Shown: positions 34,242 to 51,792 of the stretch, one piece after another
Layout: every line of letters begins with the position of its first letter
How positions within the stretch are numbered: position 1 is the stretch's first letter
Assembly (NCBI GenBank): GCA_905209455.1
Contig: CAJLTA010000004.1
Coordinates: 33,006-97,005 of the forward strand
Source of the DNA: an uncultured Collinsella sp.
GTDB lineage: Bacteria > Actinomycetota > Coriobacteriia > Coriobacteriales > Coriobacteriaceae
Direction: 5' to 3'
DNA length: 64,000 nucleotides
Position numbers and translations under genes: made by a program
The notes under the pieces: model-generated
What the model saw: the letters and a program-made list of their open reading frames with translations, nothing else
Told to the model about the DNA's origin: nothing
Database searches by the model: none

Positions 34242-37200
34242 ATGCCTGTTCGAATCTATACCACCAATGCCGGCACGGATTTGAGTGATGCCGAGTCGGC
34301 ATTGCTTGCCGACCTTATTGCCCGCCATGGGCGTGCCGTGCTGCTGGCACCTACGTTTGCCGAGCTCGACCTGTGCCGTCATGATGCGGCGGAAGCCGGC
34401 GTTTCGCTGGGTATCGACTACAAGACGCCTACATCGTGGCTTCGCTCGATTTGGGAGCTTTTGGGCGACGGGCGCGGTTTCGTCGACAACCTGCAGCGCC
34501 AGATGCTGTTTTCGGACATGGTCACGCGTCTCGACGATGCCGACCTGCAGCCGCTTTCGCGCAGCCAGGGCACGGTGCGCATGCTTGCGCGCATGGCCCG
34601 CGATGTGCTGCCGGGTGTGGCGGGGACGACGGCCGAGCGATGCGGTGGCAACAATTGCCAGCCTGAGCCAAAAAGCGATGCCGAGGCTCGTGTGTTCGAG
34701 CTTTTGCGTGCCTACGCGGACGGCTTGGACCGTCGAGATATGGTCGAGCCCTGCGAGGCGGCCGACATTATGGCCGGCACCCTGGCCGATAGCCTGCCGG
34801 CGTGCACCCGCGCCGTATGCGTGCGCGGTATCACGTCGTTTACGCACGGTCTGCTCGAGCTGCTGTCTGCCGTGGCGAACAATGGGGGAGAGGTCGTCGT
34901 GCTGCTTGCTCGCGAGCAGGCGGCGATGCGCGAGGAGCTTGCCGCGGCATTTGATGCCCGCGGTGTGCTGTTTGAGGTCGGGCCGCTGGGGGAGGACGCC
35001 GTCGCGTCTGAGGCCGCTTGCGGGAGCGCCACTCAGCCTGCCTTTATTGAGGTCGCCGGCCCCCATGCCCGTGCTCATGTCTATGCGGACGCCATCGATA
35101 AGTTGGTGAAAACGCACAAGGAGTCCAAGGCCGATAAAGCTGCTGCAACGCCCGCCGACCCTGTGCGCGTGCTCGTTGTTTCTGCCCGGGCACCCCAGCT
35201 GTTCGGTGAGCTCGCCTCTCGTCTGGCGGCTCGTCATATCGCCGCCGAGACGGCTGAGTTCACGGCGTTTTCCCAATCCATTGCGGGCAGGCAGTTTGCG
35301 GCGCTTGCCGGTCTGATCGAGCGCATGAAGGCCGCCGATGAGGGTGCGGCGTCAAAGACCGAGTGGTGGCCCGCGCCGGAGCTTACCGACTGGATCTACA
35401 GTCCGCTTTCGGGCGCTGATGCCGTCAATGCCCGTACCTTCGATAAGAATATGCGTCTCTCGCGCAGCAAGACTACCGCGGGCGTTAAGAGCCTGCTGCA
35501 GAGTGTCCAAGGCCAGGTGAGGGGCGCGCGCAAGGCGGCGAGCGACGAGAACTGGTTTAAGAACGTGCCGTGTGTGGTCTCGGACGTGTTCCAGGCGCTG
35601 TGGCGTGACAAGCCCGTGACGGCGCTCAAGGCCATGCTTGCCGTTGCCGAGGCGTTGCCCGATCGCTCGCTGGGCAGCTTGGATGGCCAGGCCCGTCGCC
35701 AGGCGGAGGTGGCCCTGCTGCGCCACGTCATCGACATCCTTATGAATGGTGCCCGCGCGCTCGACGTGTCGCAGGCTGCGACCGTGCCCGTGCTCGATGG
35801 CGTTCGCACCAAGGTGGACAAGCGTAGCACCGCCTACGATTACGAGACCTACGAGGTTGACCGTGCGCCACGTGCTCAGGTTCGTTTTGCTTCGCTTGCC
35901 GATGCGGCGGCTCTGCGCCCCGGCAGCTACGATGCCGTGCTGTTTGCCGATGTCGATCTGGACAGCTATCCGCTCTCACATGAGGAGGGTCCGCTGGCCA
36001 CGCTGACGGCGAGCCTTGGTCGCGAGGGCGTGACGCTTGAGCCCGCGGCCTTGCTGCGCGTGCGCTTTGGCCACGCGATGCAGGCGGCACGCGGCCCGGT
36101 TGCGCTTGCGCGCGTGACGCACGATCGCCAGGCGCGCGAGTGCTATCCGGCTGCCGTGTGGACCGAGTTGCGGGCGCATGCCGAGGCCGCTGAAGCTGCT
36201 GAGGCCGCAGACGCCGACAAGGCAGCTGACGACGCTAAGGCCACTGACGACAAGGCTGCTGGCGCCGACAAGGCGAAGTGCGTGGGTGAGGGCGATATCG
36301 TAAGGGACTTCGATCCCGCGGCAGGCGAAGGTCTCAAGCGCGAGCGCGTGACCTGTGAAGCCCCACAGCATCTGAGTGCCGAGGCCGTGCCGTATTTGGT
36401 CCTGCGCCGTCGCGATGGCGAGGGCGAGGACGCGCCGCTCGTGCCGCGCCTGACGTCCGCCTCACAGATCGAGGCCTATTCCACCTGCCCGCTGTGCTGG
36501 TTCGTGTCGTATCGCGTCAAGCCCCAGTCCATCGATGCGGGCTTTGGCAACATGGAGAAGGGTAACTTCGTCCACGACGTGCTGGAACACCTGCATGCCC
36601 GTCTGCCCCAAGAGGGTATGGAGCGTGTGACGCCTGAGAACCTGCCGCGTGTACGGGGGCAGCTGCGCGAGGTCTTTGCCGAGACCTTGGCCGAGCATGC
36701 GGGCAAGCGCGGTACCGAGGGCCCGCTGGTGCCGCTCTCTCCAGTGGAGGAGCGTCAGGTGGCCGAGATCTTGCCGCAGTTGGAAGGCGTGCTCGCCTAC
36801 GAGTCCGAGGCGCTCGCGCCCTTCGCGCCGCGCTATCTGGAGTTTGCGTTCAACGAGCTCCAGGTCGAGTATGCCGGTTGGCCGCTCGGTGGGCGCATCG
36901 ACCGCGTGGACGTGGACGCCGAGAATCGCGCCGTGGTGATCGACTACAAGCATCGTTCGGGTGTCGAGGAGTTTAAACTCGCCGACCCCACGGTGCGCGA
37001 CGAGGAGTCGGGCGAGGCCCCCATCGACGACCCGCGCTGGCTGCCGCCCCATACCCAGACACTCATCTACGCGCAGGCCATGCGTCGGGCGCTGGGCCTA
37101 GATACCCGGGCAGCGCTCTACTTTTCCACCAAGGGCGGCAAGCCCGCGCTGCGTGGCGCCGCAAGTGCCGAGCTGCTCGAGGAAGAGCGCGGCGACGGTC

Positions 37201-37409
37201 GCATCCCGGGCCTTAAGAAGGGCTTTCCGGGCGAGGGCGGCAGCATGGACTTCGATGCGCTGCTCGACCGCGTGGAGGCCGGCATCGCCGAGCGCCTGCG
37301 CGAGCTCGAGGCGGGCGACGTCGCCGCTGTCGATCCGACGTCGGCGCAGGCCGCGCATGCGCGCTGCTCGTATAACCACGAAGGAACGTTTGTAAGGAGG
37401 GACGTGTAG
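34242..37409 (+). CDS. addB: Helicase-nuclease complex subunit B-like (AddB/RexB-type, with a C-terminal PD-(D/E)xK nuclease).
   Basis: C-terminal nuclease motifs (SQIEAYSTCPLCWF, GRIDRVD, VIDYKH). Gene order B then A, as in addBA. The N-terminal ATPase motifs are degenerate. Confidence 0.65.
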   Translation: MPVRIYTTNAGTDLSDAESALLADLIARHGRAVLLAPTFAELDLCRHDAAEAGVSLGIDYKTPTSWLRSIWELLGDGRGFVDNLQRQMLFSDMVTRLDDADLQPLSRSQGTVRMLARMARDVLPGVAGTTAERCGGNNCQPEPKSDAEARVFELLRAYADGLDRRDMVEPCEAADIMAGTLADSLPACTRAVCVRGITSFTHGLLELLSAVANNGGEVVVLLAREQAAMREELAAAFDARGVLFEVGPLGEDAVASEAACGSATQPAFIEVAGPHARAHVYADAIDKLVKTHKESKADKAAATPADPVRVLVVSARAPQLFGELASRLAARHIAAETAEFTAFSQSIAGRQFAALAGLIERMKAADEGAASKTEWWPAPELTDWIYSPLSGADAVNARTFDKNMRLSRSKTTAGVKSLLQSVQGQVRGARKAASDENWFKNVPCVVSDVFQALWRDKPVTALKAMLAVAEALPDRSLGSLDGQARRQAEVALLRHVIDILMNGARALDVSQAATVPVLDGVRTKVDKRSTAYDYETYEVDRAPRAQVRFASLADAAALRPGSYDAVLFADVDLDSYPLSHEEGPLATLTASLGREGVTLEPAALLRVRFGHAMQAARGPVALARVTHDRQARECYPAAVWTELRAHAEAAEAAEAADADKAADDAKATDDKAAGADKAKCVGEGDIVRDFDPAAGEGLKRERVTCEAPQHLSAEAVPYLVLRRRDGEGEDAPLVPRLTSASQIEAYSTCPLCWFVSYRVKPQSIDAGFGNMEKGNFVHDVLEHLHARLPQEGMERVTPENLPRVRGQLREVFAETLAEHAGKRGTEGPLVPLSPVEERQVAEILPQLEGVLAYESEALAPFAPRYLEFAFNELQVEYAGWPLGGRIDRVDVDAENRAVVIDYKHRSGVEEFKLADPTVRDEESGEAPIDDPRWLPPHTQTLIYAQAMRRALGLDTRAALYFSTKGGKPALRGAASAELLEEERGDGRIPGLKKGFPGEGGSMDFDALLDRVEAGIAERLRELEAGDVAAVDPTSAQAAHARCSYNHEGTFVRRDV

Positions 37410-37412
37410 ACC

Positions 37413-40400
37413 ATGGATCTTTCGACCTTGATGCCGCAACAGCTGCAGATCGTCAAGACGCTCGACCGTCCGCTGTTTGTCTCGGCGGGCGCCGGTTCGG
37501 GCAAGACCTTTACCCTCACGCGTCGCATCGTCTACGCGCTCTCGCCCGAATCCGGTCCGTTCGTCGAGCATCTGGACCAGGTGCTCGCCATCACCTTTAC
37601 CAAGGATGCTGCGGCCGAGATTCGCGACCGCGTGCGCCGTGCGCTTATCGACGAGGGGATGGACGAGGAGGCCCTGACGGTCGACGACGCGTGGATCTCG
37701 ACCATCCACGGCATGTGCTCGCGTATCCTGCGTGCGCACGCGCTGGAGCTGGGCATCGACCCCGAGTTCACGGTGCTCACCGATACCGATGAGCTTATGG
37801 ACCAGGCTGTTGAGCATGTGTTGGGGCGCGCGACGGCACCCGATGCCGCGCCTGAGCTCGCCGCTTCGCTTAAGGCCCTCTACGCCTGGTATCCCATGGC
37901 GGGCGAGGGCGGGTCGTTTGGCGCCGGTACCACCATCAAAGGCCTGGTGCGCGACCTGCTGGAGCTCTCGAGCCAGCTTCCGGGCGGCATGGACGATGTG
38001 CGCGTTGCGCGTGGCCAGGCCGACACCTCGGCGCTTGCCGATGCCTATCGTGCGGCGCTGGGCGCAAGCAAGGCCACGACCGAGAAAGCGCAGGTGGCAC
38101 TCGACGCCATCGACGCGTTTGAGGCGAGCGGCAAAACCATGGAGGATGCGGCGCGACTCATGATGTCGTGCAGCATGCCTCGGGCGAGCAAGGCGTTTCC
38201 TAAGGAGCAGGTGGAGCTACTCAAGGCCGAGGCCGCCGATGCGTTTATCAATATCGTGCTTGCCTGCGGCGGCCCGGCGCTCGATGCGCTGGTGGGGCTT
38301 GCCCGTGCCGTAGAGGCGGAGTACCGTGCGCTTAAGGCCGACCAGTCCGCGCTCGATAACAATGACCTGCTGCGCATGGCGTACGAGGCGCTGCGCGACT
38401 ACCCGGCTATTCGAGCTGCCTATGAGGGCCGCTTTAAGATGGTCATGATCGATGAGTTCCAGGATACCGACCAGATGCAGGTCGATTTGATCCGTTACCT
38501 GACGGGCGCGGGGGAGCGCGCGCTGTGCACCGTAGGCGATGCGCAGCAGTCGATCTACCGCTTCCGTGGCGCCGAGGTCGAGGTATTCCGTCGCCAGGAG
38601 CGCAAGGTGGGTTCGACGACGGCGTCCGAGACGGTCGCCACGTCCGATGCCCCCACCGGCGAGCTCGTCAAGCTTGTACGCAACTTCCGCAGTCACGACG
38701 AGGTGTTGCGCTACGTGGCACGCGTCTTTGACGGCGACACCGGTGGTTTGATGCAGGGATTCTTGGATCTTGAGCCGAGTGACAAACGCAAGGACAAGCT
38801 CAAGGCAAAGGCTTCGCGCCGCCAGGCGCTGTTCGTTGCCGGCGGCAGCACGCAGGAGCGAACGCAGGCGAAAGCTCGCGCGATTGCCGAGCGGTTCCAA
38901 GCGCTCGTCAAAGCGGGGCAGCCCCAGGGCGATATGGTGTTGCTGCTGGGTCGCATGACCAACGCCGATGTCTATGCGCAAGCTTTCCGTGACCAAGGGC
39001 TCGACTGTGTGATCGCAGGCGGCTCGGTCTTTGCCCAGGCAGCCGAGGTGCAGACGGTGCGTGCCCTGGTCTGCGCGCTCGCCAATCCGGCTGATACGGC
39101 CCAAGGCCTTATGCCGTTGCTGGCCTCGCCGATGTTTGCACTCGGCGCCCAGGAGTTCCTGGCGCTGGCGACCAAGCTCGACGAGCAGACGGGAGAGACG
39201 TCGCGCCGCAATATCGATGTGGGCATCATGAGCGATTCCGATGTGCCGGGTTTGCAGAACCTGCCGCTCGTGACGCGTGCCCGCGAGGTGCTGCGCTACG
39301 CGCTTCGTCGCGTGGGACGCGACTCGTTCGCCGCCATCGCGCGCGACGTGGTCAACGCCTCCGGCTGGTTCGTGCGTCTGGCGCAGCGCGGCCCCGAGGG
39401 CAAGGCCATTGCCGCCAACGTGCTCAAGGCGCTCGACGCCGTGGCCGAGGCAGAGGCCGAGTTCGGCAACTCGCCGCGCTCCATTGCGCTCGCCTTCGAC
39501 CGCTTCTTGGCGGGCAAGGAGGCCCCGGGCGCGCTCAACGAGGAGGGTGACGGCGCGGTACGCATCATGACCGTGCATGCGTCCAAGGGTCTGGAGTATC
39601 CGGTCGTAGCGGTTGCCGAGTGTTTTGGCGTGCGCAAATCGTCCGGTGCGGCACAAATGGGTCGCGTCGACGGTGGGGCGCAAGTCGTGGCGCTGCCGGC
39701 TCGTTTCGATGGCGTTAAGCTTGCCGACGGGACCTTCGTGAAGGGCGATGACGTCAAAAAGCAGTTTGAACACGCGTTTAAGGGCAAAGGCACGTCGCTG
39801 TGGCTGCCGCCGGAGCTCATGGAGGACGTTTGTGCGACGGGTTCTCCCGCCGAGGCATTTGCTCGCCTGCGCAACGACGACCTGCAGCTCTCGCTCGAGG
39901 AGCGGGCCCGCCTGCTCTATGTCGCCATGACGCGAGCACGCGAGCTGGTCATTCTGGCGATGGATGCCGGTGTGAGCCGTGGCAAGGTGACGGCGCCGAC
40001 CTTCGATGTCGAGACGGATCTGACCTACGACGTGCTGCGCCGTATTTTGCCGACCGACGCTCTGGACACGCCGCAGCTCGATAGCGACCGCCTGGTGTTC
40101 GACAACTCCCAGCCGGGCGACTACGAGCTCATTTCGCTCACGGACTTTACCTTTGGCGAGCAGGCGTTTGAGGCAAACGCTTCGCTGGATGCCGAGGGCA
40201 GGCTTGTCCGCGGCGATGCGGAGCCGGAGGGTGCCGGTGCAGATGTCCGCGCCGCCGTTCCCGGTCCTGCCGACCCCGAGCCCGATGCGTTTGAGCTCGT
40301 GTATCCCCAGGCGGTGGGCGTGCGCATGGGCATCTGTCCGTTTCCGGTGCGTGACTCGTATAGCTACTCGTCAATCGCTGCGGCGCTCCATGCCGAGACA

Positions 40401-41045
40401 GAAGACCGTGCCGCCGAGGCGCGTGTGCCCATGGACGAGTCTGGCGATGATGCAGAGCCGGATGGCTCGGAGATGGCCGATGCGGACGTGGCCGTCGTTG
40501 AGCCCGCCGGCAACCCCATGGCGCTGGGCTCGGCGTTCCACGCCGCCTGCCAGTGGCTCATCGAGATGGGTGCCGACGCGTTGCCCGCTGCGCGCGCCGA
40601 TGCGCTGGCGCGTCTGTGGCGCCTGACGCCGGAGCAGCGCGAACGCTTCGACGTTGCCCTGAACCGCTGGCTCAAGTCGGCTGTTCGTGCCGACCTGCTC
40701 GCGTGGCCGTGCATTCGCGCCGAGGTGCCGTTCTTTTCGCTGGGCTGCGAGGACGAGGACATCGCTCGCTACGGTGCATATGCCGAAGGCGCCATCGATG
40801 CACTGGCGACGAACCCGGCGGATTCGTCACGCGCGCTGGTCATCGACTACAAGACGGGCGGCACACCGGACGAGACACCGGAACAGCTGCAGGAGAAGCA
40901 CGCCCTGCAGGCGCGCGTCTACGCTGATGTTCTACACAAGGCGGGCTTTGAGGCCGTGACCGTCAAGTTCGTCCGCGTGGAGCAGGCCGATCCGACTCTC
41001 TTCGTCAATCCCGCCGAGCCCCAAGTAGTCACCTACAATCTCTAG
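37413..41045 (+). CDS. addA: UvrD-type helicase-nuclease subunit A (AddA/RexA-like).
   Basis: SAGAGSGKTFTL Walker A. UvrD motifs: DEFQDTD, and VGDAQQSIYRFRGAE. C-terminal nuclease domain: VIDYKTGG. Confidence 0.8.
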   Translation: MDLSTLMPQQLQIVKTLDRPLFVSAGAGSGKTFTLTRRIVYALSPESGPFVEHLDQVLAITFTKDAAAEIRDRVRRALIDEGMDEEALTVDDAWISTIHGMCSRILRAHALELGIDPEFTVLTDTDELMDQAVEHVLGRATAPDAAPELAASLKALYAWYPMAGEGGSFGAGTTIKGLVRDLLELSSQLPGGMDDVRVARGQADTSALADAYRAALGASKATTEKAQVALDAIDAFEASGKTMEDAARLMMSCSMPRASKAFPKEQVELLKAEAADAFINIVLACGGPALDALVGLARAVEAEYRALKADQSALDNNDLLRMAYEALRDYPAIRAAYEGRFKMVMIDEFQDTDQMQVDLIRYLTGAGERALCTVGDAQQSIYRFRGAEVEVFRRQERKVGSTTASETVATSDAPTGELVKLVRNFRSHDEVLRYVARVFDGDTGGLMQGFLDLEPSDKRKDKLKAKASRRQALFVAGGSTQERTQAKARAIAERFQALVKAGQPQGDMVLLLGRMTNADVYAQAFRDQGLDCVIAGGSVFAQAAEVQTVRALVCALANPADTAQGLMPLLASPMFALGAQEFLALATKLDEQTGETSRRNIDVGIMSDSDVPGLQNLPLVTRAREVLRYALRRVGRDSFAAIARDVVNASGWFVRLAQRGPEGKAIAANVLKALDAVAEAEAEFGNSPRSIALAFDRFLAGKEAPGALNEEGDGAVRIMTVHASKGLEYPVVAVAECFGVRKSSGAAQMGRVDGGAQVVALPARFDGVKLADGTFVKGDDVKKQFEHAFKGKGTSLWLPPELMEDVCATGSPAEAFARLRNDDLQLSLEERARLLYVAMTRARELVILAMDAGVSRGKVTAPTFDVETDLTYDVLRRILPTDALDTPQLDSDRLVFDNSQPGDYELISLTDFTFGEQAFEANASLDAEGRLVRGDAEPEGAGADVRAAVPGPADPEPDAFELVYPQAVGVRMGICPFPVRDSYSYSSIAAALHAETEDRAAEARVPMDESGDDAEPDGSEMADADVAVVEPAGNPMALGSAFHAACQWLIEMGADALPAARADALARLWRLTPEQRERFDVALNRWLKSAVRADLLAWPCIRAEVPFFSLGCEDEDIARYGAYAEGAIDALATNPADSSRALVIDYKTGGTPDETPEQLQEKHALQARVYADVLHKAGFEAVTVKFVRVEQADPTLFVNPAEPQVVTYNL

Positions 41046-41220: not shown

Positions 41221-44200
41221 ATGGCATTCGTCCATCTGCACAATCACACTGTTTTCTCCATGCTCGACGGCGCAACCCGTATCCAGGATATGGTCAACCG
41301 TGCCGTTGAGCTTGGCATGCCCGCCGTGGCCATTACCGACCACGGCTACATGTATGGCGTGCCCGACCTGGCGCTGGCCTGTGACGCCGTCAACCACAAC
41401 ACGCCCGAGTACAAAACCTGGAGCCACGACAAGGCCTTCTTGGAAAAGGACCGCCGCGACGAGCTGGTGGAGCCCGATCCCGAGGAAAACCCGCGCGAGC
41501 ATGCCCAGTATGTGAAGGACATGGCCATGTGGGACGAGAAGGGCAACATCGACGAGCTCAAGCCGCCCCTGGTCATCAAGCCCATCTTTGGCTGCGAGGT
41601 CTACTTTACGCCGGACGAGACCCTTGCCCGCGACCACAAGCCCGAGCTCTACCATATGATCCTCCTGGCCAAAGACCAGGAAGGCTACGTCAACCTGATG
41701 CAGACGGTCTCCGAGGCCGCCGTGCAGGGCTTTTACTACAAGCCGCGCGTGACGCTCGACAACCTGCGCCGCCATGCCAAGGGCATGATCTGCACCAGCG
41801 CCTGCATCGCGGGCATCATTCCCAAGTACATCGACCGCGGTGACATGGAGGGCGCCATCAAGTGGGCTGAGACCTTCCGCGACACCTTCGATCCCGGCGA
41901 CTTTTATATCGAGATCCAGGAACACGGCATCACCACCGACAACGGCCTGACCGACGAGCAGATGGACCGCACGCTCATCGACATCGCCAAGCAGGTGGGC
42001 GTCAAGGTGATCGCCACCAACGACTTCCACTACCTGCGCCGCGAGGATGCGCCTGTGCAGGACGTCATCATGTGCATTGGCATGAATGCCAAGGTCGACG
42101 ACCCCAACCGCATGCGCATGACCGGCTCGGAGTTTTACATGAAGACCGAGGAGGAGATGCGGGCGATGTTCCCGTATTGCCCCGAGGCCTGCGACAACAC
42201 GCTCGAGATCGCCGACAAGTGCTACGTTGAGCTGGACTGGGACTCCATCATCCTGCCGCGATTCCCGCTGCTCGATCCCGGCGAGACGCACGAGAGCCAG
42301 TTCCGCCGCGAGTGCGAGAAGGGGCTGCGCCAGCACTACGGCGACGACTGGGCCACGCGCGAGATCGGCGGCGTCAACATCAAAGAGCGCTTTGAGTACG
42401 AATACAAGGTCATCTGCGACAAGGGCTTTGCCGCCTACTTTTTGATCGTTGCCGAGTACGTGCAATGGGCTAAGGACAATGGCATCGGCGTCGGCCCCGG
42501 CCGTGGCTCGGCCGCCGGCGCTATCGTCGCCTACGCCATGAACATCACCGCGTTCGACCCGCTCGAGAACGGCCTGATGTTCGAGAGGTTCCTGTCCCCG
42601 CAGCGTACCGAGATGCCCGATATCGATATGGACTTCGACGATGAGCGGCGCCTCGAGGTCGTGGAGCACGTTCGTCAGCTCTACGGCCCCGAGAAGGTCA
42701 CCCACGTCATCACCTACTCGACCATTAAGGCCAAGCAGGCCATCAACGACGCCGCGCGCGTGCTGGACTATCCGGTCTACATGGGCCAGCGCCTGTCCAA
42801 GATGGTCTCGAGCGACCCCAAGGTCAAGCTCAAGCAGGTGCTCGAAAAGCAACCCGGCAAAGAGGATCTGTTTAACCCCGACTTTGCCGAGGCCTATAAA
42901 AAGGATGACGACGCCCGCCGCATCATCGACACGGCGCTCTCGATCGAGGGCCTCACCCGTGGCGAGGGCGTGCACGCGTGCGCCGTTCTGATCTGCCGCG
43001 ATCCCGTCAACGAGCACGTACCCACCAAGCTCGATACCAAGGGCGGCGTCGAGATTACCCAGTACGAGGGTCATACCGTTGCCGACATGGGCTTGCTCAA
43101 GATGGACTTCCTGGGCCTGCGCACGCTGACGGTTATCTCCAAGGCCAAGGCAAACATCAAGAAGAACTTCGGCATCGTCATCAAAGAGGAAGAGATTCCC
43201 TTTGACGACCCCGAGATCTTTAAGCTCATGGGCTCCGGTCACACCGCCGGCGTCTTCCAGGTCGAGTCCGCCGGCATGACGGCCACGATCAAGAACATGA
43301 AGCCCACCGAGTACAAGCACGTCGTGGCATTGATCGCCCTATACCGCCCGGGCCCGCTGGGCGCCGGCATGGTCTCGTCCTACATCAACCGTATGAACGG
43401 CAAGGAGCCGGCTGTTTCCTACGACGACCGCCTGGACGACATCCTGGGCGAAACCTACGGCACCATGGTCTACCAGGAACAGGTTATGCTCATCTCCGTC
43501 GAGATGTGCGGCTTCTCCAAGGGCGAATCGGACTCGCGTATCCGTAAGCCCGTGGCTAAGAAAAAGATTAAGCTGCTCACGTCGACGGTGCTCCACTGGG
43601 AGGATGGCTCGGACGAGACCACCTACGACCACTGGATGAACGGCGCTATCAAGAACAACTACACGCGCGAGGTCGCCCAGAAGATTTGGGACGATGTTCT
43701 CGAGTTCGCGTCCTACGCCTTCAACAAGTCGCACTCCGCCGGCTACGCCATCCTGGTTATGCAGACGGCGTGGCTCAAGGCGCACTATCCGCACGAGTAC
43801 ATGGCGGCCGTTCTGACGTCCTATACGGGCAAGACCGACAAGATCGTGCACTACGTCTCGGCATGCCGTCACGACGGCATTCCCGTGCTTTCGCCAGATG
43901 TCAACGAGTCCGGTACCGAGTTCACGGCTACCAAGGAGGGCGTGCGCTTTGGTCTGGCCGGCATCCGCGGCGTGGGCACCGGCGTGGCGCAGGCGATTAT
44001 CGCCGAGCGCGAGGCGGGCGGCCCGTTTAAGACACTGCACGACTTTGTCGAGCGCGTGGACTCGAGCCAGGCAAACCGCCGTGTGATCGAATCGCTGATC
44101 AAGGCAGGCGCCTTCGACTCCACGGGGTATCCGCGTCGCCAGATGATGCACTTTGTGGACAAGAACAACCCCGAGAACATCATCGATGCCGCGGTAAAGC

Positions 44201-45024
44201 GCCAGAAGGACCGCGCGAGCGGCCAGACGTCGTTCTTCGATATGTTTGGCGACGTTGAGGGCTCGGGCTTTGAGGTGAGCGTGCCCGATCCGGATGGCCA
44301 GGAATGGGACCGCCACCTTAAGCTGAGCCAGGAGAAGGAGGTTCTGGGCATCTACGTCTCGGACCACCCGCTGCGTCCGTTTGAGTATGCACTTAGCAAA
44401 GCGCGTGACTTCTCGTTCTCGCAGATCGACACCGGCTACGAGGTGCAAAACCCCACGGGCGGTACCATCAACCAGGAGATTCCCGAGGGCAAGGCGCTGT
44501 GGTGGGCCGGTATGGTCTCGAGCGTGTCCAAGCGCGTGACCAAAAACGGCGATCCCATGGGTATCGTGCAGCTCGAGGACATGGAAGGCGAGGCCACGGT
44601 CGTGGTGTTCCCCAAGACCTACAAGGAGGCCGAGGGGTATCTGTACGGCGAGGTCGATCCCGAGACCGGCGCGCAGCTGTCCGACGCGTTTGTGCGCATT
44701 AAGGGCAAGCTCGAGCGCTCGGACCGCGGCGACCAGATCATCGCGCAGGAGATTGTACCGCTGGAGCTTAGCGAGGAGAAAAACAAGCCCAAGGTCTTTG
44801 AGGTCATGGTGCCCAACAGCCGATTTAGCCAGGGCAATATGGCGCGCCTGGCCACGGTGCTCACCACCAACCCGGGCGGCGACCGCGTGGAGATCTTTAT
44901 TGAGCAAGTCGACGGGCGCGTGCTGCGTGCCGAGGTGCCGGCCAAGGTCAATGCACGCTCGATTCCGCTGCTGGCAGAGGCAAAGGCCATCGTCGGCAAC
45001 CAAGGCCGCGTGACGGTTATCTAA
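41221..45024 (+). CDS. dnaE: DNA polymerase III alpha subunit.
   Basis: PHP domain (FVHLHNHTVFSMLDG), polymerase core, and an OB-fold. Confidence 0.9.
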   Translation: MAFVHLHNHTVFSMLDGATRIQDMVNRAVELGMPAVAITDHGYMYGVPDLALACDAVNHNTPEYKTWSHDKAFLEKDRRDELVEPDPEENPREHAQYVKDMAMWDEKGNIDELKPPLVIKPIFGCEVYFTPDETLARDHKPELYHMILLAKDQEGYVNLMQTVSEAAVQGFYYKPRVTLDNLRRHAKGMICTSACIAGIIPKYIDRGDMEGAIKWAETFRDTFDPGDFYIEIQEHGITTDNGLTDEQMDRTLIDIAKQVGVKVIATNDFHYLRREDAPVQDVIMCIGMNAKVDDPNRMRMTGSEFYMKTEEEMRAMFPYCPEACDNTLEIADKCYVELDWDSIILPRFPLLDPGETHESQFRRECEKGLRQHYGDDWATREIGGVNIKERFEYEYKVICDKGFAAYFLIVAEYVQWAKDNGIGVGPGRGSAAGAIVAYAMNITAFDPLENGLMFERFLSPQRTEMPDIDMDFDDERRLEVVEHVRQLYGPEKVTHVITYSTIKAKQAINDAARVLDYPVYMGQRLSKMVSSDPKVKLKQVLEKQPGKEDLFNPDFAEAYKKDDDARRIIDTALSIEGLTRGEGVHACAVLICRDPVNEHVPTKLDTKGGVEITQYEGHTVADMGLLKMDFLGLRTLTVISKAKANIKKNFGIVIKEEEIPFDDPEIFKLMGSGHTAGVFQVESAGMTATIKNMKPTEYKHVVALIALYRPGPLGAGMVSSYINRMNGKEPAVSYDDRLDDILGETYGTMVYQEQVMLISVEMCGFSKGESDSRIRKPVAKKKIKLLTSTVLHWEDGSDETTYDHWMNGAIKNNYTREVAQKIWDDVLEFASYAFNKSHSAGYAILVMQTAWLKAHYPHEYMAAVLTSYTGKTDKIVHYVSACRHDGIPVLSPDVNESGTEFTATKEGVRFGLAGIRGVGTGVAQAIIAEREAGGPFKTLHDFVERVDSSQANRRVIESLIKAGAFDSTGYPRRQMMHFVDKNNPENIIDAAVKRQKDRASGQTSFFDMFGDVEGSGFEVSVPDPDGQEWDRHLKLSQEKEVLGIYVSDHPLRPFEYALSKARDFSFSQIDTGYEVQNPTGGTINQEIPEGKALWWAGMVSSVSKRVTKNGDPMGIVQLEDMEGEATVVVFPKTYKEAEGYLYGEVDPETGAQLSDAFVRIKGKLERSDRGDQIIAQEIVPLELSEEKNKPKVFEVMVPNSRFSQGNMARLATVLTTNPGGDRVEIFIEQVDGRVLRAEVPAKVNARSIPLLAEAKAIVGNQGRVTVI

Positions 45025-45052
45025 GCTACCCCGGGTGAGATTGGAGGAAGTG

Positions 45053-48000
45053 ATGGCGCAGGGGACGTTTGTGCAGGCGCTTCGCAAAGAGGCGGCGTTG
45101 AGCGGCACCTTTATGAAGGGGCGTTCGCTCATGCTCAACGGCGCCGTGCTGTCGATCGAGGACAGCGGCTCGCGCTTCTCCAAAAACGTGACGGTTGAGG
45201 GCTCGGTGCGCGGTTCGCGCGGCGACCTGTACAAGACGCGAGTGGCGCTCGACATGGACGAGCACGAGGTGATCGACTACGACTGCGATTGCCCCGCCGC
45301 CTATCGTTACCCCGGTATGTGCAAGCACGCTATTGCCACGGCTCTGGCGTATTTGGATGCCAGCGGCGCCGAGCCCGTCGAAGGTTTGCGCACGCCGGTC
45401 CGCACGTTTACGGCGCAGCCGAAACAGCCCGCGCGCACCGCGCTCAAAGCGCCGGCCGTCAATCCCAACTTTCCCTTTCCGGCGCCCGTCCCCACGAGTC
45501 CCAGCCTCATGGCGGCGCTCTCCGATCTTTCGGACGCACGCATGGATGAGCTGGCGAGCATGCGCCGCAAGCTCGCTGGCAGTGTGGATCCCGATGCCCC
45601 CAAGGCGGTGTTGGAGCCCTCGTTGGTGCCGTACTACAATCCACTGTTTGCCGACCGCTTTAGCTGGGCGCTCGAGCTTCGCATTCGTTGTGGATCGGTC
45701 TCCTACGTGGTCAAGGATATCGACGGCATGGCCGACGCCTATGTCCGAGGCGGCACCTTCTCGTACGGCAAGAAGCTCACGTTTGTCCATACGCCCGAAG
45801 CCTTCGAGGACGTGTCGACAAAGCTGCTCAACCTTGTTGTGACGACAGTTGCCTATCTCGATGACATCACAAGCTCGCGTTCGGCGTCGTACGACTTTGC
45901 CCGCAGCGGTTTTGTCGCCGAGCGTCAGTTGCCGCTGTCCGAGCATAGCATCGTATATGTGCTGGACCTGCTGCGTGGCCAGACCATCTCCTTTGAGCCC
46001 GCCTGGTCGCGGGGGACGACGACGCATCGCACCTATGACGTGGCGGTTGAGATGCCTCCGGAAGGGGAGGACGAGGCTCTGTCTAAGCGCCCACCGCTCC
46101 TTGCCGCCAAAATCGCGCCGGCGGCTGGCGGCAGCTACGATCTACGCCTGCCGGCCGATGCATACTGCTTTGCTTCGGGCGACGTTGCCTATCTGGTCGA
46201 CACCCGCCGTGCGCGCCGCACCGATGTAGCGTTTGCCCAGCATGCGGCGCCGTTCCTATCGCGCTTGCTGCCCTGTCGCACGCCGGTCCATATTGCTGCC
46301 GACCAGGTGGGGGAGTTCTGTCGTATGGCGCTGCCCATTTTGCGCGACTACACCGACCTTACCGCGCCCGCTGCGCTCGATACCGTGGCGCCCGAGCCGA
46401 GCTTTGCCATGGCGATCGGCGTCGACGATGGACTCGTGACCTGCAAAGTTACGGTTACCTACGGCGACTGGTCGGCAGATCTCTTTAGCCTGGGCGCTCC
46501 GAGCAGTCTCTTCGAAGAGCAACGCCCGGGCGTGCCGCCCCGCGACGAGGTGGCGGAGTTTCGCGTTATGGATACGGCGGCCTTGTACTTCGATTTCTAC
46601 GAGGGCGGTCTGGCGTTTGAGGAGCGCGATGACGAGAGCCTGTTCCGCTTGCTGACCGAGGGCCTGTCTGCCCTGTCCGAGCTGGGCGAGGTCATGCTCA
46701 GCGACCGTCTGCGCCAGATTTCGGTCCGCCCCGCGCCCAAGCTCTCGGTTCGTGCGACCGTCAAGAGCAATCTGCTCGATGTCGAGCTGGGCGCGAGCGG
46801 GCTTTCGGCCGCGGACCTTGCCGTCTATCTCGATTCGTACAAGCGCCATCAAACGTTTGCGCGCCTTACGTCCGGCGACATCGTTCGTCTGGACGAGGGC
46901 GCTCGAGCCGCGTTTGGCCTCGCCGAGGACCTGGGCGTCGATGCCGTCGACCTGCTCGACGGCGTGTCGCTTCCCGCGTCGAGTACCCTGTTCGTCGATA
47001 GCATGCTCGCACGCACGCCCGCGCTCGAGGCCGATCGTGACGCCGCGTTCCGCCGTACCGTCGAGCGCCTGGACACGCTCGGCAAGATGGACTTTACGGT
47101 ACCCGCCTCGCTCAAGGCCACGCTGCGTGGCTACCAGGTCGACGGCTACCAGTGGCTCGGCTCGCTTGAGCATCTGGGCCTTGGCGGCATCTTGGCCGAC
47201 GACATGGGCCTGGGCAAAACGCTCCAGATGATCGCGCATATCCTGGCGCGTGTGGAAGCGGGGGACATTAAGCCCACGCTTGTGGTGTGCCCCGCGTCGC
47301 TTGTGTACAACTGGACCGCCGAGCTGGAGCGCTTTGCCCCGTCGCTCGATGTGTGCGCCATCGTGGGCGCCAAGGCGCAGCGTCGCGTGCAAATCGCCGG
47401 CGTGGCCGAGCATAACGTGGTCGTGACGTCGTATGACCTTATGCGGCGCGATATCGACGAGTACGTCGAGCAGGACTTTGCCCGTGTGGTGCTCGATGAG
47501 GCCCAGTACATTAAAAACCCGCTCACCCAGGTGGCGCGCGCCGCAAAGCGCCTGCCTGCCGGCGTGCGCTTTGCCCTGACGGGCACGCCCATCGAAAACC
47601 GCCTATCCGAGCTCTGGAGCATCTTCGACTTTTTAATGCCGGGCCTGCTTGGCACGCGCGAGTCGTTTGCCAAGCGCTTCGAAAGCCCGGTCGAGCACGC
47701 CGAGGGCGACAGTGCCGCTCGCCTGCAAGCGCTCGTGTCGCCGTTTGTGCTGCGCCGTGTCAAGGAAGACGTGGTGGCCGACCTGCCCGAAAAGATCGAG
47801 GACACGGTCATGGCGCAGCTCACCGGCGAGCAGCGCAAGCTGTACCTGGCAAACCAGGACCGCATCGCCCAGCAGGTGCAGCACCGCGAGGCATCCGAGT
47901 TTAAGAAAGACAAGCTCAAGGTACTTGCCGAGCTCACCAAGCTGCGCCAGATCTGCTGCGACCCGCGTCTGCACTACGAGGATTACAAGGCGGGGAGCGC

Positions 48001-48517
48001 CAAGCTCGATACGTGCATGGAGCTCGTGCACGGCGCACTCGACGGTGGTCATCGCATCTTGCTGTTCAGCCAGTTTACGGGCATGCTCGATATCATTGGC
48101 AAGCGCCTGGCCAAGGAGGATATCGCCTTCCTTAAGCTCACGGGCGCATCGTCTAAAGAGAGCCGCGCCAAGATGGTCGCACAGTTCCAGGCGGGCGAGG
48201 TGCCGGTCTTTTTGATTTCGCTCAAGGCGGGCGGCGTGGGCCTTAACCTGACGGCGGCCGACGTGGTCATCCACTACGACCCGTGGTGGAACGTGGCGGC
48301 GCAGGACCAAGCGACTGACCGCGCGCATCGTATTGGCCAGCAACATACCGTGACCGTGTACAAGCTCATCGCCAAGGACACGATCGAGGAGCGCATTATG
48401 CAGATGCAGGAGTCCAAGCGCGACCTGGTCAACAGCGTGCTCGGCGGCGACGGCATCTCGTCGGCACTGTTCACGCGCGAGGATGTTCTGGCGCTGCTCG
48501 GCGGCGACGGTCGCTAA
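45053..48517 (+). CDS. SNF2-family helicase with an N-terminal SWIM zinc finger.
   Basis: SWIM motif CDCPAAYRYPGMCKHAIA. SNF2 motifs: LADDMGLGKTLQ, and DEAQYIKNP. Helicase-C domain. Start at the ATG at 45053 after SD ggaggaag. The track ORF starts at 45035. Confidence 0.8.
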   Translation: MAQGTFVQALRKEAALSGTFMKGRSLMLNGAVLSIEDSGSRFSKNVTVEGSVRGSRGDLYKTRVALDMDEHEVIDYDCDCPAAYRYPGMCKHAIATALAYLDASGAEPVEGLRTPVRTFTAQPKQPARTALKAPAVNPNFPFPAPVPTSPSLMAALSDLSDARMDELASMRRKLAGSVDPDAPKAVLEPSLVPYYNPLFADRFSWALELRIRCGSVSYVVKDIDGMADAYVRGGTFSYGKKLTFVHTPEAFEDVSTKLLNLVVTTVAYLDDITSSRSASYDFARSGFVAERQLPLSEHSIVYVLDLLRGQTISFEPAWSRGTTTHRTYDVAVEMPPEGEDEALSKRPPLLAAKIAPAAGGSYDLRLPADAYCFASGDVAYLVDTRRARRTDVAFAQHAAPFLSRLLPCRTPVHIAADQVGEFCRMALPILRDYTDLTAPAALDTVAPEPSFAMAIGVDDGLVTCKVTVTYGDWSADLFSLGAPSSLFEEQRPGVPPRDEVAEFRVMDTAALYFDFYEGGLAFEERDDESLFRLLTEGLSALSELGEVMLSDRLRQISVRPAPKLSVRATVKSNLLDVELGASGLSAADLAVYLDSYKRHQTFARLTSGDIVRLDEGARAAFGLAEDLGVDAVDLLDGVSLPASSTLFVDSMLARTPALEADRDAAFRRTVERLDTLGKMDFTVPASLKATLRGYQVDGYQWLGSLEHLGLGGILADDMGLGKTLQMIAHILARVEAGDIKPTLVVCPASLVYNWTAELERFAPSLDVCAIVGAKAQRRVQIAGVAEHNVVVTSYDLMRRDIDEYVEQDFARVVLDEAQYIKNPLTQVARAAKRLPAGVRFALTGTPIENRLSELWSIFDFLMPGLLGTRESFAKRFESPVEHAEGDSAARLQALVSPFVLRRVKEDVVADLPEKIEDTVMAQLTGEQRKLYLANQDRIAQQVQHREASEFKKDKLKVLAELTKLRQICCDPRLHYEDYKAGSAKLDTCMELVHGALDGGHRILLFSQFTGMLDIIGKRLAKEDIAFLKLTGASSKESRAKMVAQFQAGEVPVFLISLKAGGVGLNLTAADVVIHYDPWWNVAAQDQATDRAHRIGQQHTVTVYKLIAKDTIEERIMQMQESKRDLVNSVLGGDGISSALFTREDVLALLGGDGR

Positions 48518-48667
48518 CCCGCTCGGGTGGGGCCGCCAGGGCGGATGGCACGCGCTGTCCCATCGTCCCCGCCCGTTATGTGTTCATTTGCAATGCCGTG
48601 GATGGTTTGTCTGCCTTTGGGCATAAGAACCATCAAGAACATTGGCACATCAGCAAAGGAGAACATC

Positions 48668-49030
48668 ATGGCGAAATTCTTTAAGGACCCCGACGGTAAG
48701 CTCATCGCTGCCCTTGACGACGGCGTTGCGACCCCTGCCGGTTGCACGGAACTGACCGCAAACACTGAGGACGCGGCGCACGAGAAACACGTGCCTGTTG
48801 TCGAGACCGAGCGCGACGGTCACGTGATTCGCGCACGCGTTGGCTCGGTCGAGCACCCCAGCCTGCCCGAGCACTACATTGAGTGGATCGCCCTTGAGGC
48901 CGAGGGCCGCTTGGAGGTCCATTACCTTGAGCCCGGCATGAAACCCGCGACGTTTTTCGCGGGCGGCTCCAAGACCGGTACCATCTATGCCTACTGCAAC
49001 CTGCACGGGCTGTGGTCCGCGACATTCTAG
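48668..49030 (+). CDS. sor: Superoxide reductase, 1Fe-SOR / neelaredoxin type.
   Basis: EKHVPV, HPSLPEHYIEWIAL and CNLHGLW iron ligand motifs. SD aaggaga. The track ORF starts further upstream at 48527. Confidence 0.85.
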   Translation: MAKFFKDPDGKLIAALDDGVATPAGCTELTANTEDAAHEKHVPVVETERDGHVIRARVGSVEHPSLPEHYIEWIALEAEGRLEVHYLEPGMKPATFFAGGSKTGTIYAYCNLHGLWSATF

Positions 49031-49147
49031 GAGCGCGCCCCCGCTCGGGGTATCATAGCTAGCATATGCACATGCAAGCGCCGACTGCATTATGCGGCCG
49101 GCGCTTTTACTACGATTTCGATGGTTTACGACGGAAAGGGCTGAGCC

Positions 49148-51133
49148 ATGAAGCTCGCGCTTGCACAGATCGATATGCGCCTGGGTGATATTGAGGGCAT
49201 TTGCGGCCGCATCGAGGACCAGGCTCGTCTGGCCCACGAGCGCGGTGCGCGCGTGCTGTGCGTTCCGGCTCCGCTCTTTATGGGCGCTATGCCCGGTGGC
49301 CTGGTGGGCGCTGCCGACTTTGAGCATGACATGCTTGCCGGCTTGACTGGTGTCGCCGAGCGTATCCAGGAGCTTGACATGATCTGCATCGTGCCCGCGG
49401 CGGTTTCGTTTGAGGGCCAGCCGCTGCTCGACTACATGATGCTCAAGGACGGTCATGTGGTGCCGGCGCGTTCGAGCATTGCCCTGCAGCGTGGTGAGAA
49501 CAACGACACACGTTGGGCGCCGCCGGTGTTCGACGTGGACGGCGTGCGCATCGCCGTGATTTTTGACTTGGACCGCGAACTCGAGATGTTGCCGACCGGT
49601 GTTGACCTCATTGCGTATTTCCAATTCAACGCGTTTGACATGACCGACCGCGAGACTGCCGCCATTGCCGCCGTTCGCAGCGGCGCCTACCGCAAGATCG
49701 CATCCAAGCGCAGCGTGTGGTTTGCCTGCATGGCGCCGGTCGGTGCCTTTGACGAGTCGGTGTATACCGGCGGTTCGTTTGTGCTCGACGACTGCGGCCG
49801 CGTGGTGGCCCAGGCGCCGTGTTTTGAGGAGAGCCTGCTGGTTCAGAAGATTCAGCGCGGCGTGATGCTCGATGCCCTGGAAGATCACGAACTGCCCGAG
49901 TTCCGTTCCGAGGAGTGGTTGTGGCAGGCGCTGGTGCTCGCCGTGCGCGACAACGCCCGAGCCCACGGTGCGTCGCGTGCTGTGGTGGCACTCGAGGGTG
50001 ACCTGCCGTCGTCTTTGCTGACGGCGCTGGCCGTCGACGCTCTGGGCCCGCGTAATGTGATTGGCCTGGTGCTGGGGCGCAACCGTATCTTTACGCCGGC
50101 GCAGGAGGAGGCCGAGGCTGCCCGCTGTGCCGCCGTCCGTGCCATCGCCGAGCGTTTGCACATTCGCACTGTCGAGCGCGATGCACCGGATGCGGCGCGT
50201 GTGCTCGATCGCGACGTGTCGGCGGGCGATGCCGAGCGTCTGCGCTCGCGCACGTTGGGCCTCATGCTGGAGGACACGGCGCTCGAGCTGGGTGCGATGG
50301 CGCTGAGCCCGCTGTCCAAAACCGAGTACGCGCTGGCGGCGCCGGCGCTTTGCGGCGGCTACCAGGGCGACTTTGCGCCCTTTGGCGATGTGTACCTGTC
50401 GACGCTTGAGTTTGTGGCGCGTGTGCGCAACCGCACGTCTGCCGTGGTGCCCCAAGAGCTCGTGACGCTCAACGCGGTGGAAGATTGTATGGAGCGCGTG
50501 CTGGCGCAAGCGCTCTCGACGCTCGACGGTCCGGTCGATATGCTCGACCGCGCGGCACAGCTGCTCGGCGGGCTTGAGCCGGGTGAGGTCGATGGCGCGC
50601 TCGAGGCGCACGTGGACCGCAATCGATCTTTCGACGACATCCCGATGGCCGCTGGCAAGCCTGAGGCTTGCTCGCTGCTGCTGATGCTCGTTCGACAGGG
50701 TGAGGCTGCCCGCCGCATGTTGCCGATGGCGCCGATCGTCTCGGCCCGTTCGTTTGCCGAGCGTGCCTGGCCGTATATGCTCGCGTGGTCCGACCTGGGG
50801 CTTAATGGCAAGGAGCGTACGACGGTCGATTCGCTGGCGCGCGCCGAGGTGCGTCGTTTTGCTGACGAGGATACGAGCGAGCGCGTGCGAAACGAGATGA
50901 TGGGCGTGCTGGGCGAGCTACTGGGTATTTCGCCCGAGCAAATGGAGGAGCTGCGCTCTGAGGACGGTCAGCGTCGTTTGCACGAGGGAATGAAAAAGTT
51001 CGAGGGCGAGGTTCAGGACGCCATCGATAAGATGATGGGCGGTCAGGGCGGCTCGCAAGGTAGTCCCCAGGGTGGCCCGATGCCGCATCCGCCGGTGGAT
51101 CCGAGGCAGTTCCCCTTTTTCTCGCAGAACTAA
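49148..51133 (+). CDS. Glutamine-dependent NAD+ synthetase homologue (CN-hydrolase plus NAD-synthase domains) with degenerate catalytic motifs. Likely a pseudoenzyme.
   Basis: Collinear with NadE, but the PP-loop SGGxDS is replaced by EGDLPS, and GNKSE by LSKTE. The nitrilase catalytic Glu and Cys positions are altered (VPAPLF; IAVIFD). C-terminal Gly/Gln-rich tail. Confidence 0.6.
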   Translation: MKLALAQIDMRLGDIEGICGRIEDQARLAHERGARVLCVPAPLFMGAMPGGLVGAADFEHDMLAGLTGVAERIQELDMICIVPAAVSFEGQPLLDYMMLKDGHVVPARSSIALQRGENNDTRWAPPVFDVDGVRIAVIFDLDRELEMLPTGVDLIAYFQFNAFDMTDRETAAIAAVRSGAYRKIASKRSVWFACMAPVGAFDESVYTGGSFVLDDCGRVVAQAPCFEESLLVQKIQRGVMLDALEDHELPEFRSEEWLWQALVLAVRDNARAHGASRAVVALEGDLPSSLLTALAVDALGPRNVIGLVLGRNRIFTPAQEEAEAARCAAVRAIAERLHIRTVERDAPDAARVLDRDVSAGDAERLRSRTLGLMLEDTALELGAMALSPLSKTEYALAAPALCGGYQGDFAPFGDVYLSTLEFVARVRNRTSAVVPQELVTLNAVEDCMERVLAQALSTLDGPVDMLDRAAQLLGGLEPGEVDGALEAHVDRNRSFDDIPMAAGKPEACSLLLMLVRQGEAARRMLPMAPIVSARSFAERAWPYMLAWSDLGLNGKERTTVDSLARAEVRRFADEDTSERVRNEMMGVLGELLGISPEQMEELRSEDGQRRLHEGMKKFEGEVQDAIDKMMGGQGGSQGSPQGGPMPHPPVDPRQFPFFSQN

Positions 51134-51201: not shown

Positions 51202-51215
51202 AGAACAGACGTTCG
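51202..51215. promoter_or_regulatory. LexA (SOS) box upstream of ruvC.
   Basis: AGAACAGACGTTCG matches the Gram-positive GAAC-N4-GTTC (Cheo-type) LexA operator. Lies ~55 bp upstream of the ruvC start. Confidence 0.5.
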
Positions 51216-51270
51216 TGAATGATGCGCGGGGCCTTGTCTTGCGCTGTGCTTGTGGCGAGGGGAGGTCGGC

Positions 51271-51792
51271 TTGGTCATTTTGGGTATCGACCCCGGTTTG
51301 GCCCATACGGGTTGGGGGATTATCGAGGAGCGGCGCGGCGAGGTTCGCTGCCGTGCCTACGGCTGCATCGAGACCAGTGCCGGAAGTCCGCTCGCGGTGC
51401 GCCTGTCGCATATCGCCCGCGACCTCAAGGGTGTCGTGGAGCGTTATCGACCCGATACCGCTGCTATCGAGAGCATTTACTTTGGCGCCAACGTTCGCTC
51501 GGCCATCCCTACGGCGCACGCCCGCGGTGCTGCACTCGTGGCGCTTTCGGAATGCGCGCTCGAGATTGGCGAGTACACGCCTATGCAGATTAAGCAGGCT
51601 GTTGTGGGCACCGGCGCCGCGGACAAACGGCAGGTCGCGTATATGGTTCGTACGCTCACACAGCTCGATCACGACCCACATCCCGACCATGCCGCCGATG
51701 CCCTGGCCTGCGCCATCTGCCACGTTAATCTCAGCCGCACCCGGGCGCTTACCGGCGGCGAGTTCTATCAACAGAGAGGAACCGGATACTGA
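51271..51792 (+). CDS. ruvC: Holliday junction resolvase.
   Basis: VILGIDPGLAHTGWG. TTG start after SD ggggagg. Confidence 0.85.
   Translation: MVILGIDPGLAHTGWGIIEERRGEVRCRAYGCIETSAGSPLAVRLSHIARDLKGVVERYRPDTAAIESIYFGANVRSAIPTAHARGAALVALSECALEIGEYTPMQIKQAVVGTGAADKRQVAYMVRTLTQLDHDPHPDHAADALACAICHVNLSRTRALTGGEFYQQRGTGY

Follow-up and report, generated by a model that had tools for sequence, protein, structure and literature searches.

The stretch of DNA analysed here, called the window, covers 64,000 nt of an uncultured Collinsella sp. (assembly GCA_905209455.1, contig CAJLTA010000004.1, positions 33,006–97,005 of the forward strand) and contains, between dnaE and ruvCAB, a gene for a 661 aa homologue of NadE, the glutamine-dependent NAD synthetase. 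This gene, referred to as gene X and its product as X, is a member of a large family in Coriobacteriaceae and Atopobiaceae, and it is kept by strong purifying selection over its entire length; it is not a decaying gene. Judged by its sequence, X lacks the residues required for catalysis, the mark of a pseudoenzyme homologue, and very probably does not make NAD. With moderate confidence, X is interpreted as a catalytically inactive NadE descendant that would act as a scaffold, with its terminal F-S-x-N motif (FSxN) docking into a putative partner and that interaction being the selected function. Gene X and its two domains are located as follows.

49148–51133, + strand: gene X, a NadE-derived pseudoenzyme of 661 aa (ATG start, stop codon at 51131–51133), assigned from the open reading frame (ORF), homology, fold and a ratio of nonsynonymous to synonymous substitution rates (dN/dS) of 0.07.
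49148–49897, + strand: residues 1–250, nitrilase-like (glutaminase) domain without its catalytic triad (27 canonical NadEs; HMMER against 4f4h, 5kha and 3n05).
49898–50797, + strand: residues 251–550, NAD-synthetase-like (PP-loop ATP pyrophosphatase) domain, its active site dismantled (119 canonical domains).

The GC content by codon position (GC1/2/3 of 0.72/0.45/0.77) is typical of a genuine high-GC gene, and a 653 aa ORF on the opposite strand (48650–50611) is the usual high-GC shadow of gene X. Residues 1–538 of X fall on model positions 5–532 (of 546) of NCBIfam NF010588, the equivalog for PRK13981-type NadE, with a score of 138.4 bits that lies below the curated cutoff of 479 bits (29 % of the cutoff). 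Pfam NAD_synthase (PF02540) matches residues 259–439 at 2e-9 and 37.3 bits, above the gathering threshold of 21 bits, a match that is evidence of homology and not of function; Pfam CN_hydrolase gives a fragment match only (3e-5). The NadE entries 4f4h, 5kha and 3n05 in the PDB match X at 5e-24 to 2e-22. The AlphaFold2 model of X, a monomer built on 125 family sequences, has a predicted local distance difference test score (pLDDT) of 92.5 and a predicted template modelling score (pTM) of 0.86, and the top Foldseek matches to this model are the NadE structures 3n05 (E value 1e-32), 4f4h and 5kha (approximately 1e-30), over roughly 590–620 columns. Pfam and the model thus place the two-domain NadE architecture, nitrilase-like plus PP-loop synthetase, in X over its full length. 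An earlier reading of this DNA, made without database searches (the sequence-only reading), had proposed full-length collinearity with glutamine-dependent NAD synthetase, and the NF010588, PDB and AlphaFold/Foldseek results bear this out.

The same reading held both active sites to be degenerate. For the glutaminase site, 27 full-length canonical two-domain NadEs (from metagenomes) were aligned with 125 family members; for the synthetase site, 119 canonical synthetase domains were compared with the X family. The positions that matter are these.

49268–49270, + strand: A41, in the column of the catalytic Glu, where FPE has become VPA (HMMER alignments and 27-NadE alignment).
49475–49477, + strand: S110, in the column of the catalytic Lys (27-NadE alignment).
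49559–49567, + strand: I138-F139-D140, in the columns of the canonical C-E-D of the nucleophile elbow (27-NadE alignment), after model strand 133–138.
49994–50011, + strand: EGDLPS, residues 283–288, the remnant of the PP-loop SGGxDS (HMMER against 4f4h, 5kha and 3n05; 119-domain comparison).

The Glu, Lys and Cys columns, each 100 % conserved in the 27 canonical NadEs, hold A41, S110 and I138 in X. Across the X family the Glu column is A, M, S or L and the conserved E is never seen; the loss of the Glu context (PAPLF), as previously claimed, is confirmed. HMMER puts the catalytic Lys within residues 107–110, a stretch without any Lys, and the LPNYxVFDExRxF motif that follows the catalytic Lys is not found in X in the 27-NadE alignment. 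Loss of this Lys had not been mentioned before. The nitrilase Cys had been said to be replaced by Phe; the Cys is lost, however the column holds I138, with F139 occupying the column of the invariant Glu directly after it, and the claim was therefore correct to within one residue. No Cys is found near the nucleophile position, whether this is placed at I138 or at F139. A first MAFFT alignment, which included N-terminally truncated canonical sequences, had located the catalytic Lys motif at residues 79–102; this placement conflicts with the predicted strands and with HMMER, and was rejected.

In the synthetase domain, ‘lSGGvDSal’ of the three solved NadEs lines up with ‘lEGDLPSsl’ of X, in agreement with the earlier assignment of EGDLPS to the PP-loop. 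The PP-loop columns read D/E-G-D/S/T-L-P/A/G-S in the 125 family members. Approximately 35 columns are 100 % conserved in the 119 canonical domains, and about three quarters of these are lost in the X family; X retains only G284, S288, K391, P435, D482 and R522, and additionally D297, G300 and V304 from columns conserved at 95–99 %. The losses include the Ser, second Gly and Asp of the PP-loop, the NKSE Glu, the whole G-Y-x-T-L-Y-G-D block, both columns of the R-x-R pair (R368/R370) and, with the Lys of KRRQ, the K417 and K521 columns. The vacated columns vary within the family and no new consensus has been fixed, which argues against a re-tooled active site. A mere shift of the motifs had been named in advance as the observation that would speak against degeneracy; the full-length NadE alignments show loss. 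With the triad, the PP-loop and most invariant synthetase residues gone, both sites are degenerate as originally described. X is thus a NadE homologue that, by equivalog cutoff, triad, PP-loop and other invariants, falls outside the predicted membership of the enzyme and fits the concept of a pseudoenzyme.

The gene itself is well preserved. The 661 aa frame is unbroken in all 80 Collinsella genes compared (the window and 79 orthologues), and the median dN/dS against the 79 orthologues is 0.07, similarly low in all four regions (nitrilase-like, synthetase-like, extension and tail). Strains of C. aerofaciens and metagenome-assembled genomes (MAGs) of Collinsella carry the same gene, at 98–99 % protein identity, at 80 loci in total, which places the window in the Collinsella aerofaciens group. 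More than 200 homologues with 48–97 % identity are found in Collinsella and Coriobacterium glomerans (Corgl_1163), and a profile search of 1.84 billion cluster representatives returned 372 at E<=1e-30. In a second tier, at 25–29 % identity, the source-named members are all Atopobiaceae, Olsenella or Thermophilibacter. Family members are named ‘hypothetical’, ‘nitrilase-related carbon-nitrogen hydrolase’ or, by JGI/IMG, ‘NAD+ synthase (glutamine-hydrolysing)’, the last label being carried by P0180, P0284–P0295, P0328 and P0350. X has no match among the PADLOC defence-protein models. Fold, degenerate sites and dN/dS together uphold the earlier proposal of a conserved-fold pseudoenzyme.

Canonical NadE ends at about residue 550 of X, and approximately 110 extra residues follow.

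50798–51043, + strand: residues 551–632, helical extension, including the clade-conserved helix MGVLGELLGISPEQMEEL (model; conserved in the first tier of homologues).
51044–51130, + strand: residues 633–661, disordered Gly/Pro/Gln-rich tail, GGQGGSQGSPQGGPMPHPPVDPRQFPFFSQN (pLDDT below 50).
51116–51130, + strand: FFSQN-COOH, the family-invariant C-terminal motif F-S-x-N (348 of 358 full-length members).

The model shows helices at residues 560–631 with pLDDT of about 80–87, and the extension searched alone against Pfam gives no domain. In all members the extension has the same order: a variable acidic stretch, a clade-specific short helix (MGLLGxLLGIxPEQ in Coriobacteriaceae and LGYLRDFxxGG in Atopobiaceae), a Gly/Pro-rich linker and an invariant C-terminus. 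The length and sequence of the linker and tail are highly variable across the family. The C-terminal end is FSxN in 348 of the 358 full-length members, with F at −4 in 100 %, S at −3 in 99 % and N at −1 in 100 %. None of the 27 canonical full-length NadEs ends in this way; among 120 canonical matches only P0429 ends FSxN, and P0444 carries the tail variant ...WGFLAN. No other ORF with a similar C-terminal motif occurs in the window or in six diverse loci. The Gly/Gln-rich tail of the sequence-only reading is therefore present, but the informative feature is the invariant FSxN-COOH end, which that reading missed. Whether FSxN serves as a docking motif is considered an even call. In the literature searched, of limited coverage, no description of a C-terminal FSxN motif was found.

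A few tail-bearing relatives have an intact synthetase site. P0239 retains SGGLDS, NKTE, YSTLYGD and EYKRRQEP, reaches a Pfam NAD_synthase score of 231 bits and has the C-terminus ...DWGMFFRN; its gene lies directly after dnaE, the same position as gene X. The PP-loop is likewise intact in P0232 and P0429, which end ...G(I/L)P(L/V)FSKN, and in P0444, labelled Coriobacteriales bacterium, which ends ...EGWGFLAN. The glutaminase triad is already gone in P0239 and P0232; P0429 and P0444 are N-terminally truncated, and the triad is thus not readable there. These intact relatives probably still make NAD from ammonia (NH3). The dead proteins P0237, P0243 and P0257 (PP-loops SGDAPS and AGDLGS) are the nearest neighbours by distance of the intact P0232 and P0429, and all five share the tail RLDxMxxRxxHQDQ...GPDMDxxxGxPxFSKN. 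When metagenomes were scanned with an alignment of the intact, tail-bearing proteins, only ordinary NadEs without a tail came up; these form the canonical reference set of 27.

The same tail is found on relatives with a working-looking synthetase site; it thus came before catalysis was lost, as did the function linked to it, and the loss probably occurred more than once. The sequence-only reading had called X a paralogue of NadE. This designation is not supported: the intact P0239, P0232, P0429 and P0444 carry an X-type tail, P0239 is encoded directly after dnaE, and near-identical tails are found on dead proteins, all of which make ‘paralogue’ doubtful. The comparison points to X being a decayed orthologue of a tail-bearing NadE rather than a simple dedicated dead paralogue.

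The sequence-only reading expected a functional nadE elsewhere. No second NadE homologue is apparent in the window, where tblastn of X matched only X; a scan of the genome collection for canonical nadE in Collinsella returned only the X locus, 80 times; and proteins matched by the intact P0239 synthetase domain were NadEs from many phyla, none named Collinsella. Stand-alone, NH3-type NadEs of 272 aa with intact SGGxDS, related to the synthetase domain of two-domain NadE, are present in GC-rich metagenome contigs (L090, 4750–5568; L093, 10001–10819). Their context is conserved as tatC-hypA-hypB-nadE-(two-component system)-groES-groEL. These proteins are candidates for the working NadE of Coriobacteriia.

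The proposed sequence of events begins with an ancestral two-domain NadE in which the glutaminase triad would have been lost first. A still-working synthetase would then have gained the tail, and the synthetase site would have been lost afterwards, probably more than once. To our knowledge, NadE is oligomeric in all solved NadE structures; the oligomeric NadE body may accordingly serve as a scaffold displaying flexible tails, each terminal FSxN docking into a putative partner protein. Selection would in this scheme act on the partner interaction and not on NAD synthesis, with NAD amidation presumably being carried out by another enzyme, e.g. a stand-alone NH3-type NadE of ~272 aa, or bypassed.

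Several points weigh against this proposal. The inactivity of X is read from sequence, and PP-loop-independent chemistry in a new pocket is possible. The model is that of a monomer, and docking of the tail in cis, within an oligomer, would not be visible in it. In the neighbour-joining tree the dead proteins are monophyletic, but this may reflect long-branch attraction, and the count of independent losses is uncertain. Finally, C. aerofaciens is scored as a niacin prototroph in a gut-microbiome reconstruction (Rodionov et al. 2019; PMC6593275), and such prototrophy requires a NadE; if gene X is what was counted, the scoring may be in error.

The window places gene X in a conserved neighbourhood, with the following features.

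41221–45024, + strand: dnaE (DNA polymerase III alpha), the upstream anchor (window; loci L083, L085, L087 and L088).
48668–49030, + strand: superoxide reductase (SOR; 1Fe-SOR/desulfoferrodoxin family), upstream of gene X (Pfam Desulfoferrodox, 4.9e-17).
49077–49105, + strand: a stable hairpin followed by UUUUAC, terminator-like, between SOR and gene X (−21.5 kcal/mol, z-score −3.4).
51203–51214, + strand: GAACAGACGTTC, a LexA/SOS-box-like palindrome between gene X and ruvC, the sole GAACN4GTTC in the 64-kb window.
51250–53479, + strand: ruvC-ruvA-ruvB, the constant downstream neighbours (synteny).

The gene order is adnA/adnB-like helicase-nucleases, dnaE, SNF2/SWIM helicase, SOR, X, ruvC, ruvA, ruvB and formate-tetrahydrofolate ligase. 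The order dnaE-(SOR)-X-ruvCAB recurs in C. glomerans, in a distant Coriobacteriaceae MAG and in Atopobiaceae contigs, with the C. glomerans locus showing SOR-X-ruvCAB without dnaE. SOR is next to X in L081, L083, L085, L086 and L089 and absent in L088; the gap between the two is 3–12 nt in L083, L085 and L089. The hairpin between SOR and X in the window is not equalled in stability by any of 200 shuffles and is a likely terminator or attenuator in the window's lineage. Thus the earlier description of X as lying downstream of SOR is true of the window, but SOR is an optional neighbour and a terminator-like hairpin stands in between.

No SOS box (GAAC-N4-GTTC) is present upstream of X in the window, its sole box being the one downstream, before ruvC. 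In each of L081, L083, L085, L088 and L089 the only such palindrome is likewise a TAGAAC-N4-GTTCG before ruvC, at positions 12043, 12031, 12072, 11871 and 3673, respectively. In L089 the palindrome is 6 nt inside the called ruvC start (3667), and the called start is therefore probably too early; in the window the TTG at 51271 (VILGIDPG) is a likelier start of ruvC than 51250. It appears that ruvCAB has an SOS-regulated promoter of its own, and such a promoter is known for ruvC in mycobacteria. Membership of X in a ruvCAB SOS operon was considered and dropped, given that the conserved SOS box sits between X and ruvC.

Other genes of the window were noted in passing. The helicase-nuclease pair directly upstream of dnaE (34242–41045) is of AdnAB/AddAB type, one protein with PD-(D/E)XK and the other with UvrD-helicase and PD-(D/E)XK, and is conserved in the Atopobiaceae loci too. 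The SNF2 helicase between dnaE and SOR (45035–48517, 1160 aa) carries a SWIM zinc finger at its N-terminus as well as an SNF2_assoc domain, and matches defence-helicase models (DpdE, ZorD) via its SNF2 domain only; the gene is absent from the dnaE-SOR position in L083, L085 and L088 and is specific to the window's lineage. The ORF at 57809–59197 (462 aa) has weak zinc-ribbon matches to Cas12f/TnpB-type TNB domains and no other domain; its product may be a transposon-associated nuclease that has degenerated, or else a zinc-ribbon protein with no relation to these. The ORF at 55458–56447 (329 aa) has good coding statistics and no Pfam family. No tRNA genes, and no Rfam families at the gathering threshold, are found in the 64-kb window.

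Of the other explanations for X, a prozyme role has a low probability: X would hetero-oligomerise with an active stand-alone NadE, or with another PP-loop enzyme, and regulate or stabilise it. The synthetase active site of NadE is located at a dimer interface in established structures, and dead paralogues regulate or stabilise an active partner in some other enzymes. X has kept the NadE fold together with many structural residues, and the stand-alone 272 aa NadEs with intact SGGxDS would be candidate partners if Collinsella has one. However, the stand-alone gene is not a neighbour of gene X in any locus seen, and neither the invariant FSxN tail nor the existence of intact tail-bearing forms would be explained. 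The gene neighbourhood suggests instead an accessory of replication or repair, with the tail as a sliding-clamp- or SSB-client-type docking peptide and X as a scaffold to the replisome or RuvABC. Loci of Coriobacteriaceae and Atopobiaceae keep the order adnAB-dnaE-(SOR)-X-ruvC-ruvA-ruvB constant, with X proteins that are only 25–50 % identical; the Collinsella-clade tail, x-[FYL]-x-F-F (QFPFF in the window), has the hydrophobic pattern of the clamp motif QLxLF; and the window DnaE has GQTSFFDMFG (residue ~1002) at the usual clamp-binding position, Phe-rich like QFPFF of X. Yet such a role is quite unlikely. Relative to the clamp motif (QL[SD]LF or QxxLxF), the h-x-h-F pattern is seen in the Collinsella clade; the family invariants are the F, the S and the terminal N, of which the S and terminal N are outside the clamp motif, and the clamp Q/L positions vary (W/G at −8 and P at −5 in Atopobiaceae). 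The SOS-box promoter that ruvC has of its own in six loci, between X and ruvC, means that co-regulation of X and ruvC is not implied, and, with a housekeeping nadE as the ancestor in this position, the shared gene order may have been inherited and need not be functional.

Co-expression with SOR, with X as an oxidative-stress scaffold or regulator, is suggested by SOR being immediately upstream in five of six distinct neighbourhoods and by the 3–12 nt gaps, which suggest co-transcription. The absence of SOR in L088, the terminator-like hairpin after SOR in the window and the lack in X of a conserved Cys/His cluster or redox-cofactor motif (no Cys is invariant in the 125 sequences) make this very doubtful. 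Equally doubtful is that X is still an enzyme, be it a NAD synthetase with an unorthodox ATP site or a protein neofunctionalised with a new active site. In its favour, purifying selection is strong across the whole body, K391, D414, R427, D482, R522 and the GDL motif persist, and JGI pipelines name family members NAD+ synthase. However, the triad, the PP-loop Ser/Gly/Asp, the NKSE Glu and the YGD motif are all gone, X falls far short of the NCBIfam equivalog cutoff, and the vacated columns are variable where a new active site would predict the reverse. Among the rivals only a functionless relic, a pseudogene in slow decay, is excluded, and it is the selection data that exclude it: the degenerate active sites would suit a relic, but a dN/dS of 0.07, an intact frame in all 80 Collinsella genes and a conservation in which, even at 25 % identity, some residues and the C-terminus stay invariant would not.

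The scaffold with a docking FSxN tail remains the explanation preferred here. In its boldest form, given a small chance of being correct, FSxN-COOH would be an undescribed docking, possibly modification, signal in Coriobacteriia that arose on a working NAD synthetase and tethers a dead oligomeric NadE shell to a conserved machine, e.g. the replisome/recombination apparatus encoded alongside, with conversion to an adaptor having occurred several times independently.

X is likely misannotated as NAD synthase in Collinsella, Olsenella and related bacteria, which are abundant in the gut and mouth. Should X be counted as NadE, the niacin prototrophy predicted for these taxa may depend on a dead enzyme; should they have no other NadE, they must make NAD by a different route. 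The X family also offers a natural series, from working enzyme with tail to dead enzyme with the same tail, in which the loss is apparently recurrent, and is thus suited to the study of a moonlighting function taking over a housekeeping enzyme. A four-residue C-terminal motif that is invariant across proteins ~25 % identical implies a specific receptor, whose discovery would assign a role to a protein conserved in this order.

Compared with PRK13981-type NadE (EC 6.3.5.1; 4f4h, 5kha and 3n05), X has the same two-domain architecture and fold over ~550 residues and shares many structural residues, among them GGS(F), DALG, the NKSE Lys and the KRRQ Arg. It differs in having no Glu-Lys-Cys triad, no SGGxDS and few of the invariant synthetase residues, in being only 20–23 % identical, and in its additional C-terminal ~110 residues ending in FSxN. 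The intact tail-bearing relatives have the same kind of C-terminal extension and, where readable (P0239 and P0232), a dead glutaminase, whereas they keep SGGxDS, NKSE/NKTE, YSTLYGD and EYKRRQEP and score ~230 bits on NAD_synthase. No NadE pseudoenzyme is described in the literature searched, which was of limited coverage. Like pseudoenzymes derived from other metabolic enzymes, X has kept its fold under purifying selection while losing catalytic residues; unlike in these, what is conserved is a short linear motif at the terminus and not a retained ligand pocket. C-terminal docking tails on flexible linkers are known from SSB (DDDIPF), clamp-binding proteins (QLxLF) and the FtsZ C-terminal peptide. 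F-S-x-N-COOH fits none of their consensus sequences, yet the tail of X is built in the same way, with a disordered, variable, low-complexity linker leading to a short invariant hydrophobic motif at the C-terminus.

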